From Tolypothrix carrinoi HA7290-LM1 (lineage in GTDB: Bacteria; Cyanobacteriota; Cyanobacteriia; Cyanobacteriales; Nostocaceae): DNA of 64,000 bases. The notes below the pieces were generated by a model. That model searched no databases. It was not told where the DNA came from and saw only the letters and a list, made by a program, of their open reading frames with translations. Shown here one piece after another: positions 126-57,735 of this stretch. Position numbers and translations under genes: made by a program. Numbering within the stretch: position 1 is the stretch's first letter; every line of letters begins with the position of its first letter. The stretch covers positions 1-64,000 of the forward strand of contig JAHHIK010000014.1 in assembly GCA_019358935.1 (NCBI GenBank), read 5' to 3'.

Positions 126-2749
126 ATGAATATAAAAACGCTGATAGCATACCATTAATTCAAACAATACAAAATCAAATTAGTAAGTTAGCAAAAGAAT
201 ATAAAAATTATCCTTCTGTAACTCCTCCAGAAAAAAATTGGCTTGTTCATCAGAAGTTACAAAAACTGTTAGAAATCAAAGAAATATCTACACCTCTTGA
301 ATCAACCGATAACGCATTAGACGCAATATGGGGAGAAGAAATCACCCCTGCTGTAATTGTAACAACGCAAACTGAAGCCGAAACTAACACTTACGAGCCT
401 TCAGAAAATACTGACTTATTAACTGTTAGTCAGCAAGATATTACTGAAGCGATTGTTGAAGTCCTCCCTGATTCAACCACAAGAATTAACAGCCAAATCG
501 AAGAAAAGCCCCAACCTACCCCAACTAAAAATTCTCGGCAACGTTCATTTGTGAGAGTGGATGTAGAGGGACTGCAACGCCTCAATTATCTAGCAGGAGA
601 ATTACTAATTTATCACAAACGCCGGACTTTGCAAGATGAACAACTCACAGAAAAAATTGAACAATTATTTCAGCAACTTAACAGACACCAAACGACTTTA
701 AATGAATTACGCGATTTACCACTACAGTTGCAAAATTTCGCTCGACAAAATCGACAAAATTTTTCAACGGTGGACTTCGACTCTTTGGAAATGGATGAAT
801 ATACAGAATTTAATCTGGTATTGTATTCAGCTTTAGAAGAGACACTGCAACTGCTAGAAACTACAGAATCCCTTGATTTACTGCTCAGACAATCGGTTCA
901 AATTCACGAGAAAAAACAGCGTTTAGCATTAGGTATTATTGATAATCTCGTGGAAGCGCGGATGTTGCCTTTGGGGAATATTTTGGAACGCTTTCCCCAA
1001 ATGGTACAGAATTTGGGGAATGTCTATAGGAAAATTGTAGAATTGAAACTTACTGGCACAGCTGTGTTAGTCGATAAAGCGATCGCCGAAAAGTTATACG
1101 ATCCTTTATTGCACTTGGTACGTAATGCTTTTGACCACGGGATTGAACCTCCGGAAGTTCGACGCGATCGCCAAAAACCCGAACAAGGTGTTATCCGCCT
1201 TCGGCGGAAGGCAGAAGGCAGAGGGCAGAGGGCAGAAGGTATAAATTATGTCTTTGATTCAGCCTTCTGGCTGGAGCCAACTGGGTATAAAACCCCACCG
1301 TCTACACGGTGGATTCAATCGGTTGGGGTTTGAATCCCCATCCGATTGCTCCTTCTGCCTTCTGCCTCCTGCCCTCTGCCTTTCTTCAATGAAATTTGTG
1401 CTTATCATCAAAGTAGTCAAACTATCATTGAAGTTCGCGATGATGGTCAAGGTTTAAATTTAGAAAAAATTCATCAGAAAGCGATTGAATTAGGTCTTAT
1501 ATCCGCTAACGAGAAAGCTAGAGGCTATACTTATAACCAGACTGAATCAGTTCTATTAGAACTGATGTTTTCACCGGGATTTTCCACCGCTGGCAAGGTA
1601 AGTGAAATTTCTGGACGCGGTATGGGATTGGACATTGTACGCTCTCAATTGCTGGCACTTAATGGTTCTATTTCAGTTCAATCATTGCCTAACCAAGGAA
1701 CAACTTTTACACTTAAAATTCCTTTTTCTATGACTACTGACCGATTAATGTTAGTTCAAGCGGGTAGTGCTGTATATGCCTTGCTGTTGGACAGTATCGA
1801 AAAAATCTTGATTCCTTCTAGCGAGCAAATTAAGGAATTTGAAGGCAAAAAAGTCTTGCACTCAAACACAGGCAAGGATGAGCGGATGGTTAGCCTGCGT
1901 AAACTTTCAGAGTTGATAAACTATAATGGTTCATTTGCTAGCGGGAATATATCGCAGAATCACATAACGAATTATGACACAGTAGTAAAGTCTAATCCTG
2001 TACTTTTGCTACGGCGAAATCAAGAAGTTTTGGGTTTAGAAGTTGACCAAATAATTGGTGAACAAGAGTTGGTAATCAGACCTTTAGGAAATGCGATCGC
2101 TCCCCCAAAATATGTTTATGGTTGTAGTAGTTTAGCGAATGGTACTCTCATCTTAGTAATTGATAGTGCGCTGCTGTTACAGTCTGGCGAAATGCAAGCA
2201 ACACTTGATATCATGACGCAGCCAACAGCGCATTTGTTAAAAAAAAAAGCTTTACCTTCAGGTTTAACTGGTTCTACTACACCGCTACTCAATCCATCTG
2301 CTGCAAGCAAGCAGCCTAGTCAATTAGTGCCAAATAACAACTCACTAAAAGTAATTTTAGTAGTAGATGATGCAATTAGTCTCCGCCAAACCCTTTCTCT
2401 CACCTTACAAAAATCTGGCTACCAAGTCTTACAAGCCGAAAATGGTGTAGATGCTTTAGAAAAGTTGCAGCTGCATCCGGAAATTCAAGTTGTAATTTCC
2501 GATTTGGAAATGCTGCGAATGAATGGTTTTGAGTTATTAAGTAATATCCGTCAAAACCCAAAATTGATAAAAAAACCTGTAGTAGTTCTTACTTCTCGCA
2601 GTGCAGAAAAACATCGCCAATTGGCACAAGCATTAGGCGCAAATGCTTACTTGACCAAGCCTTATTTAGAGAATGAGTTTCTCTCTACTGTCGAGAGTTT
2701 AATTAGCAGGAATGTTGATAATTTTACTCAGTTACTTTTGCATAATTAA
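126..2749 (+). pseudogene. CheA-like hybrid chemotaxis histidine kinase (dimerisation, HATPase_c, CheW, REC), interrupted
   Basis: ORFs 551-1333 and 1346-2749 share one frame. Motifs RVDV, HLVRNAFDHGIE, DDGQG, FSPGFST, SGRGMGLDIV and a C-terminal receiver are present. A 195-bp insertion carries TGA at 1331-1333. Confidence 0.85.
1195..1389 (+). mobile_element. 195-bp non-autonomous element, IS200/IS605-like ends, copy 1
   Basis: Matches the reverse complement of 57309-57503. Removing it restores GGT GTT ATT GAA ATT (G-V-I-E-I). It follows TGTTAT, ends in TTCAA and has no TSD. Confidence 0.9.
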
Positions 2750-56489: not shown

Positions 56490-57695
56490 TTAACTTAAGC
56501 GCAGCCAGCGTTTTCAAAAAACGAGAGGTAGGTTCGAGCGTACAGGTTTGCTGCTCTTTTTCTCGTCTTTTAATGATGACATCAGCGCGATCGCGCTACT
56601 TGCGGATCGCGGTAAGGAATAGCAGCACTCATAAATGCAAATGTTCTTTTTCTGCCTGGGAAAGGGTGGAGGAGGGGGGGAGAGGGGGGGATGGGGGAGA
56701 CAAGGGGGAGGGGGGAGACAAGGGAGATGGGGAAGACAAGGAAGACGAGGAGGCAAACTCCCCCGGCCCCCTGCCCCCTGCCCCCTGCCCCCTGCCCCCT
56801 GCCCCCTCCTCTTGTATGCGCTGCAACAGTACCAGGCGATCGCCTTCCCACTGGTGGGGTAGAACCGATTTGTAAATCGGCTGCCAAAAGTGCTGTGCGT
56901 ACTGCCGCAGCACAGGAATAAGTCGCTAATAATCCATCTACGTGTAAACACATAGAGACTTTTTTAATAAATTCAATTGTCCACAATTGCGGACATTGAG
57001 GTGGTGAAAAAGGATCGAGAAAAATTGCACACTAAGCGAAAACCTGAGTGATATACTTGCCCTATCGTGCTTCTAGCATCGCCAATTAGTAGCCTTGCCG
57101 CTATATTGTCTCGAAATACTTGATGCTCACTCGCCGTCATTAGTCAAAATTTCCGTATATTCGTAACTCCAATTGTCGAATAAGCGCTAAGAGCGATCGC
57201 CGCAATTGGCACAGATGCATTCAACTCTAAACCGATTACTTCCACATAACAATTGGGATTCACTGCCCAAATTGTCTGCAAAGCAGCTGCGGTGTTGTAT
57301 CCTAACCCTTGAAGAAAGGCAGAGGGCAGGAGGCAGAAGGCAGAAGGAGCAATCGGATGGGGATTCAAACCCCAACCGATTGAATCCACCGTGTAGACGG
57401 TGGGGTTTTATACCCAGTTGGCTCCAGCCAGAAGGCTGAATCAAAGACATAATTTATACCTTCTGCCCTCTGCCCTCTGCCTTCTGCCTTCCGCCGAAGG
57501 CGGATAACAAACATCTAACAAACGCAACACTGGTTTATTAGCTTTCAACGCTAGTTGCGTAGGACTGGCAAACTTGAAAAAACTCTCTTGACGCGCTCCA
57601 TAATGACTGTGAAAAAACTTGCCAAACTCTTTGGAAATAAACGTGAAAGAGCCGTCTGCTGTAACTTGTGGTATAAAGTTATCATCATTTGTCAT
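56490..57695 (-). pseudogene. MnmC/MnmD-like SAM methyltransferase, disrupted
   Basis: TADGSFT...FHS..GA, LDVCY|GLGYN, IGDAR, FLDPFSP..CPQLWT, LATYSCA and AAIPYRDP are spread over several frames. It also contains the 195-bp insertion and an internal STRR array. Confidence 0.85.
57309..57503 (-). mobile_element. 195-bp non-autonomous element, copy 2
   Basis: Matches 1195-1389. Removing it restores TGT TAT GGG TTA GGA TAC (C-Y-G-L-G-Y). It follows TGTTAT and has no TSD. Confidence 0.9.
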
Positions 57696-57735
57696 TTGTG
57701 ATTACCTTTTCCCAATTACCAATTATCAATTACCA

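Follow-up and report, generated by a model that had tools for sequence, protein, structure and literature searches.

Positions 1 to 64,000 of contig C14 (C14:1-64000) in the draft genome of Tolypothrix carrinoi HA7290-LM1 (7.96 Mb, 184 contigs, 42% G+C) were analyzed as one stretch of DNA of 64,000 nucleotides, hereafter the window. The window carries two copies of a 195-nt element that contains no transposase gene, stops being present in the frames through it. Copy A (1195-1389, + strand) lies in sense orientation within a gene for a CheA-like hybrid kinase, and copy B (57309-57503, - strand) lies, also in sense orientation, within a gene for an MnmC-like methyltransferase. An earlier note, made from the letters of the window, had described the two copies as identical, and this was borne out at 195/195 positions (100% identity). 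Their shared left flank is 6 nt long (TGTTAT), identity ends exactly at the TTCAA of the right end, and the right flanks are different from base 1 onward. The host tetranucleotide TTAT directly precedes both copies, at 1191-1194 (+) for copy A and at 57504-57507 (-) for copy B.

Empty sites were found in relatives for both insertions. The CheA-like site is empty in three congeners (G008, G010, and G002), where the sequence runs ...GGTGTTAT/TGAAATT... with the 195 nt absent, and the matches to its two flanks abut in six more genomes (G001, G006, G017, G013, G015, and G012). The MnmC-like site is empty in G003, G009, G005, and G013 (...GTTTGTTAT/GGGTTAGG...). Compared with these orthologous sites, the window has exactly 195 nt extra, the target is neither duplicated nor lost, and TTAT is retained as host sequence. 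Moreover, at 3 of the 37 insertions described below (C119:7794, C21:45968, and C10:69293), which lie in sequence repeated within the genome, paralogues are contiguous across the insertion point. The proposals of the earlier note that a clean deletion restores the interrupted motif in both host genes, and that insertion occurs without target duplication and next to unrelated right flanks, thus agree with what the seamless orthologous and paralogous sites show. Terminal inverted repeats are absent as well: the ends CCGCC... and ...TTCAA are unrelated, the hairpins are subterminal, and the long subterminal arms are atypical.

Copy number, target and recent activity

When the 195-mer was compared by BLAST with its own genome, 37 full-length copies were found, 6 of 195 nt and 31 of 196 nt, together with 5 partial ones; the 196-nt form has CAGCATAGCTG in its right arm. 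All 37 full-length copies are preceded by TTAT and end in CTTTCTTCAA, and the invariant boundaries predicted for the element therefore hold throughout. Since TTAT occurs in this genome at a frequency of 0.0059 per position and strand, chance is excluded as the source of this flank. The base at position -5 is T in 21 copies, A in 9, G in 7, and C in none, positions -6 and beyond are mixed, and the right flanks are patternless. Because positions -4 to -1 are constant in 37/37 copies and positions -5 and -6 are variable, the target is the tetranucleotide TTAT. The hexamer TGTTAT, earlier taken as the insertion motif, does precede both window copies, but only its TTAT is constant across the 37 copies, and the TG common to the two is due to chance. 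Words resembling the highly iterated palindrome HIP1 (GCGATCGC) are present in the flanks and, with the relatives found, indicate a filamentous cyanobacterium.

The 37 copies represent 9 distinct sequences, and 18 copies are identical to each other. No copy above 74% identity was found in the 10 other genomes of the genus. In a survey of 60 genera of the family (one genome each), in which matches were scored among the best 13 candidates per genome, at least 11 had a match at E≤1e-15, the best reaching 84-88% identity over partial length. The position of the insertions relative to open reading frames (ORFs) was assessed by a crude rule, in which the copy was deleted in silico and a stop-to-stop frame of at least 150 codons was required across the joint. 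By this rule 16 of the 37 insertions are sense, 7 are antisense, and 14 have no ORF, compared with 1304 sense, 701 antisense, and 995 no-ORF among 3000 random TTAT sites. No orientation bias in genes beyond that of TTAT itself, and no purging from genes, was found between the 37 copies and the 3000 sites. Given the 18 identical copies, the lack of near-identical copies in the 10 congeners, and an ORF distribution like that of random TTAT sites, the data fit a recent burst of the element in this lineage, which disrupted the CheA-like kinase gene and other genes; the recent activity suggested by the earlier note is thereby upheld. Two contigs end inside copies of the element (C175:1-126 and C160:13340-13465), and contigs C41 and C50 end inside a TTAT-targeting insertion sequence (IS). 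Such repeats fragment the assembly, which makes the copy numbers lower bounds.

The interrupted genes were annotated with Pfam. The ORF downstream of copy A contains HATPase_c (profile positions 36-109 of 111), CheW, and Response_reg domains, and on account of these domains the gene split by copy A is, judged by its sequence, a CheA-like hybrid kinase. The MnmC-like gene split by copy B has a Methyltransf_30 match in its downstream piece, and Pfam returned no family in the 200 aa left of copy A or in two short MnmC-like pieces. The exact empty sites confirm that copy B interrupts the MnmC-like gene, but this gene carries other lesions too, a stop at 57144 and a change of frame near 57031, and five congeners (G001, G002, G010, G006, and G008) have deletions or no alignment at the site. 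Given the extra stop, the frame change, and the deletions in congeners, the MnmC-like gene is decaying in the lineage regardless of the insertion of copy B. G001 and G002 are without about 415 nt of this gene (window 56973-57701, -). Its open 3' piece contains, at window 56700-56815 (-), a C-rich stretch preceded by GGGGGCA heptamers, six in tandem, and this whole segment is read through as a Gly/Arg/Gln-rich protein.

Element anatomy and the pairing of guides with cleavage sites

Predicted folds gave z values of -9.3 for the element as single-stranded DNA and -11.4 as RNA, and the opposite strand folds about as well. The fold comprises a 5' hairpin, a heptamer stem of about 30 bp (GGCAGAR and its complement), and a branched core. 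In copy A (coordinates on the + strand), the element starts with the hairpin CCGCC-TTC-GGCGG (1195-1207; GCCC-TTC-GGGC in relatives), which is present in the folds, and stops at TTCAA, both as claimed before. The left arm (1208-1239) consists of GGCAGAR heptamers and the right arm (1351-1382) of YTCTGCC heptamers; compared without gaps over 32 positions, they form 28 Watson-Crick pairs, 2 G-T pairs, and 2 A-C pairs, so that the mismatches, used as a strand test, stand at 2 against 2. Between the arms lie an internal TTAT (1246-1249), the hairpin CAGCC-TTCT-GGCTG (1260-1273), which folds and is kept in locus L157 of another Nostocaceae genome, and the L-motif GGGTAT-AAAA-CCCC (1283-1296). These are followed by the hairpin CCACCG-TCTACA-CGGTGG (1295-1312), a candidate left TnpA-binding palindrome in which 4 of 6 pairs are changed on both sides, and by the hairpin ATCGGTT-GGGG-TTTGAAT-CCCC-ATCCGAT (1318-1346). 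In one copy of family 2, the loop of the CCACCG...CGGTGG hairpin is altered and the stem is kept. The two internal hairpins counted in the earlier note must accordingly be replaced by a mini-hairpin plus three hairpins, as seen in the folds and the alignment.

The core was aligned over 15 sequences from 9 genomes. The consensus contains three helices: a mini-hairpin clamped by GGG/CCC, a hairpin with a variable stem, and a long hairpin with the loop TYWGAAT. Within the L-motif, the positions G, G, T, A, A and CCCC do not vary among the 15 sequences. Pairs changed on both sides make up 11/22 of the core pairs and 7/12 of those in the hairpin of the right guide (see below), and 90% of the core cells are paired, compared with 76% in shuffles. 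The covariation score is 0.394 versus 0.135 in shuffles, with 0/500 shuffles as high and slid controls far lower.

For IS608, published work (PMC5027513, PMC3201880, PMC5934647) describes a transposase that does not itself read the cut sites. There, the left cleavage site (C_L) TTAC pairs with a left guide (G_L) AAAG, and the right cleavage site (C_R) TCAA with a right guide (G_R) GAAT; site positions -3 and -1 pair with the guide, and T-4 and A-2 interact mutually. The guides lie 5' of the foot of a subterminal palindrome, the left cut being 19 nt 5' and the right cut 10 nt 3' of the palindrome foot. Conservation in the element's core is highest for two words, GGGTAT-AAAA-CCCC and GGGGTTT-GAAT-CCCC. 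They hold the putative guides, AAAA at 1289-1292 on the left and GAAT at 1332-1335, in the hairpin loop, on the right. With TTAT before the element as C_L and TCAA, its last 4 nt (1386-1389), as C_R, the combinations AAAA/TTAT and GAAT/TCAA satisfy the IS608 pairing at positions -3 and -1.

The same reading was extended to related elements. The own genome has 51 clusters of heptamer-armed hairpin loci, 127 loci in all, with arms of GGCAGAR or GGGGTGT and varied cores, and several of these families insert after TTAC or TGAC. Further loci of this kind are present in relatives. Guides were picked by eye from printed sequences, without a blind permutation test, and ends were set where the flanks diverge for families with several copies, and from likeness for those with a single copy. 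Among 111 scan loci, only those with a visible end were read, the arm match often being internal or the motif mis-picked in the automatic search for left ends.

On the left, AAAA, AAGA, or AATA goes with TTAT in family 1 (37/37), family C (7/7), family 2a (3/3), and family 2c (5/5), and also at 12 loci of other genomes. AAAG goes with TTAC in family C' (4/4) and cluster 5 (5/5), CAAG with TGAC in the 7 copies of family F and in others, GAAG with TCAC in 2 copies, AAGT or AAAT with TTAA at 3 loci, and GAGT with TCAA at 1 locus. On the right, GAAT goes with TCAA, CAAG with TGAC, and GAAG with TCAC; CAAT goes with TGAA in family C' and clusters 5, 8, 16, and 28, AAAT with TTAA in family D, and GAAA with TCAT at nine single-copy loci. 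Between two sub-lines of family F, both guides, the flank, and the end all switch together. Since locus L188 combines CAAG/TGAC on the left with GAAT/TCAA on the right, the two sides are independent. Read by eye, these sequences suggest six left and six right site classes, in which the tetranucleotide before the C-run covaries with the flank or the end, with some exceptions that are given below.

Mode of movement, candidate helper and rival explanations

Given the 5' flank constant in 37/37 copies, the seamless empty sites, and the covariation of guides and sites, the element is very probably what the earlier note had supposed, a non-autonomous transposon of IS200/IS605 type (a palindrome-associated transposable element, PATE), moved as single-stranded DNA by a Y1/HUH (histidine-hydrophobic-histidine) transposase, TnpA, supplied from another place in the genome. 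In a mechanism modelled on that of IS608, cuts would be made in the top strand just behind the flanking TTAT and the terminal TCAA, the element would leave as a circle with the donor resealed exactly, and the circle would re-enter 3' of another TTAT. The cut sites would be read by the core tetranucleotides and not by the enzyme, through AAAA-TTAT and GAAT-TCAA pairing at positions -3 and -1. The acting TnpA, the single-stranded circle, the excision step, and the binding of the hairpins by protein are what we infer from these patterns.

A shorter form of the element, from position 56 to 195, was also found. A solo copy follows GATTAT at C2:120242-120382, and contig C52 holds a tandem array of the form [1-195][56-195][56-195]. 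This 140-nt sub-element, which is without the left arm and the 5' hairpin, starts just after the internal TTAT (element positions 52-55), an alternative left cleavage and target site, and it appears to have moved on its own. Because a cut at the internal TTAT and re-insertion 3' of TTAT are expected to give this outcome, both the solo copy and the array can be accounted for, and the left arm and the 5' hairpin would thus be dispensable for movement.

The own genome contains 7 Y1_Tnp loci and 51 TnpB-type matches. An IS605-type element on contig C133, whose left end recurs at the termini of contigs C41 and C50, follows TTAT in 3/3 copies. Its left end reads ...CGAAAA-CCCCGG..., 17 nt inside, and its right end ...AGAAT-CCCCGTCGCTTTAGCGCGGGG-AGTGTCAA. 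It has an intact TnpA (with HVH, a C-terminal Y, and a Pfam Y1_Tnp match over positions 2-121 of 121) and a split tnpB. Since this IS carries the same four signals as the element, it is put forward as the likeliest helper, named by these matching signals alone; the sequence shared between the element and the resident IS consists only of the 8-mers AAAACCCC and GAATCCCC. Another IS, L001, has TGAC / CAAG-CCCC on the left and GAAT / TCAA on the right, the same code as elements of the L188 type. A longer element with the same ends, which the earlier note had proposed to look for, was found neither in the own genome nor at 29 tnpA loci sampled in relatives.

Several observations weigh against this account. 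No similarity longer than 11 nt was found between the element and the 7 tnpA loci of its own genome, and at 36 tnpA loci of the own genome and relatives the arms and core are absent, with 1 motif match. The left guide lies 94 nt from the left cut and is followed by CC and the hairpin, unlike the guide placement in IS608. The right guide, about 50 nt from the right cut, is placed in the loop of a hairpin and not 5' of a palindrome foot, and in the minimum-energy fold the arms separate both cut sites from the guides by about 30 bp. The code also has its exceptions: family C has the right loop TCAT with the end TCAA, one CAAG copy on C54 stands at TTAC, cluster 27 combines CAAG with TCAC and cluster 33 ATAG with TGAC, clusters 11 and 30 allow either CAAT or CAAG to be read, clusters 21 and 37 depart from the code on their right sides, and L127 and L132 have no TTAT at the left arm. 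Moreover, many of the families are single-copy, so that their ends were placed by likeness, and the guides were chosen by eye. As to architecture, the sister families C' and D and the TCAT group have a canonical guide-plus-hairpin arrangement on the right, and the right part of the element looks like a permuted version of it, with the same CCCC:GGGG helix closed on the guide side. We may speculate that the G-rich arms fold as quadruplexes and so bring the cut site near the guide.

The same chemistry could also be carried out by a domesticated protein of the repetitive extragenic palindrome (REP)-associated tyrosine transposase (RAYT) kind, in which case the elements would be host passengers resembling REP doublets that form hairpins (REPINs), and not IS parasites. 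No IS shares the arms of the element, and two of the 7 Y1_Tnp loci, L006 and L007, are single genes without tnpB that have weaker Pfam scores (87 and 75 bits) and look unlike IS copies. However, no GTAG or CGTC tag was seen by eye in the printed element ends, insertions fall within genes as often as random TTAT sites do, and the four signals match those of IS605/IS608-type elements of this genome, L004 and L001. A RAYT-like mover is therefore considered unlikely. A REP or REPIN identity of the element itself was rejected on the missing tag and on the 23/37 copies located in long ORFs.

Movement by some other route, for instance through a novel recombinase or through slippage of replication at TTAT, would make the guide-like motifs coincidental, and it could draw on the guides not being at IS608 positions and on the exceptions to the code. 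Against it, the six left and six right classes, as read by eye, each meet two Watson-Crick constraints, and the switch between the sister sub-lines of family F is coordinated at four places. To our knowledge, no other known mode of bacterial transposition gives a 5'-only tetranucleotide without duplication, which also counts against such a route, and we regard it as quite improbable. A classical MITE (miniature inverted-repeat transposable element) moved by a DDE transposase was rejected as well, there being neither terminal inverted repeats nor target site duplication.

A further idea treats the element as a structured RNA, such as a small intron or an insert resembling a ribozyme, that is removed from transcripts so that the host genes remain functional. 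It could invoke the very stable fold (z of -11.4 as RNA), the covarying core hairpins, and the sense orientation of both window copies, but it is hardly credible, as an Rfam search of window positions 1000-1600 with E up to 10 gave no intron family and only chance matches below threshold (the best being a plant microRNA model at 26.9 of 85 bits), 7/23 in-ORF copies are antisense as expected by chance, 31/37 copies are 196 nt long with stops in the reading frame, and the flank rule fits DNA targeting. A group I intron or IStron was likewise rejected, given the lack of an intron family and the 7 antisense in-ORF copies.

Sister elements and comparison with known systems

The heptamer arms had been regarded as an unusual trait of the element. 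They are present in the folds, but they are not peculiar to it: long heptamer arms characterize an entire superfamily of elements in filamentous cyanobacteria. The left arm is missing from relatives in Okeania and in a Microcoleaceae genome, and there TTAT stands about 18 nt before AATA-CCCC-hairpin, near the spacing of IS608. One copy of cluster 5 lies within a CCCATTA tandem array, just after TTAC, and the array resumes seamlessly beyond it. At C42:52564-52935 (L067), two family-2 elements are arranged head to tail, with TTCAA abutting CGTCGC and no TTAT between them; the first copy is without its own left end, and such an arrangement would be expected at a circle junction. Several different heptamer-armed elements carry, nested in their G-rich arms, a hairpin mini-insert of about 45 nt (GAGCCACTGCGG...GCAAGTGGCGT) that also occurs elsewhere in the genome (48 BLAST rows, e.g., C110:11805-11872, C52:13544-13612, and C90:14681-14747); it looks to be another mobile repeat, of still smaller size. 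A typical element of the superfamily, with TTAT, GAGTCAG arms, and CTTCTTCAA, was found in a contig binned as an Acetobacteraceae genome (L155), which may be a mis-binned cyanobacterial contig.

It is conceivable, though we hold it only tentatively, that these loci make up a superfamily of heptamer-armed PATEs, not described before, which occurs in Nostocales and some Oscillatoriales, with guides in GGG/CCC-clamped loops and at least six left and at least six right specificities naturally diversified within single genomes, and that the tandem heptamer arrays long known from filamentous cyanobacteria are built and spread as element arms. A literature search, which worked on full text and did not cover most subscription journals or ISfinder, returned no paper tying heptamer-armed cyanobacterial repeats to IS200/IS605, and none on loop-borne guides or a natural spread of specificities. 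The kind of element, a non-autonomous IS200/IS605 derivative, is already known, and what would be new is the heptamer-armed architecture, the loop-borne guides, and the natural spread of specificity.

Among described repeats, the 147 'Type II' MITEs of Anabaena sp. 90 (77-541 bp, three inverted-repeat sets, 15 in ORFs) are, in the accessible part of the genome paper, reported to have no likeness to IS ends, and that part gives no link to IS200/IS605 and no target rule (PMC3542288). They resemble the present elements as hairpin repeats in a Nostocales genome, the comparison being one of descriptions and not of sequences. The same part of that paper leaves these repeats without a transposase (PMC3542288). 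The mode of movement proposed here offers a mechanism for hairpin repeats that break genes and fragment assemblies in filamentous cyanobacteria. REPs, as described in the available text, are 20-40 nt long, extragenic, and tagged with GTAG or CGTC (PMC3733652). The REP/REPIN-RAYT system is alike in that a Y1/HUH enzyme acts on hairpin DNA with a short 5' tag, whereas the elements here are 125-300 nt long, lie in genes, and have paired guide and cut-site signals.

PATEs are described as keeping the ends of a resident IS, and the element differs from them in sharing no ends with any resident autonomous IS. It is like them in being short, non-coding, and multicopy, and, on our reading, in being mobilised in trans by TnpA through ends of IS200/IS605 type. 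As non-coding IS200/IS605 derivatives, PATEs have been described in Haloquadratum walsbyi and listed for other hosts (PMC3119063, PMC7290912).

A further likeness is with the IS608/IS605 group of the IS200/IS605 family, whose members, like the element, insert 3' of a T-N-A-N tetranucleotide, without duplication and without terminal inverted repeats. The right pair TCAA/GAAT of IS608 from Helicobacter pylori is identical in the element, and on the left the AAAG/TTAC of IS608 corresponds to AAAA/TTAT, in which the last base pair has changed from G:C to A:T, a compensating change. Unlike IS608, the element has neither tnpA nor tnpB, bears 32-nt heptamer arms, and has guides clamped by GGG...CCC, the right one in a hairpin loop, with much longer distances between guide and cut. 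The covariation of guides and cut sites provides a natural dataset on how single-strand transposons change their target specificity, and the superfamily, if real, would be the natural counterpart of the laboratory retargeting of IS608. Signals of the IS608 type seem in these elements to work, or at least to spread, far from the cut sites and in loops, which is relevant to how far TnpA depends on the architecture of IS608.

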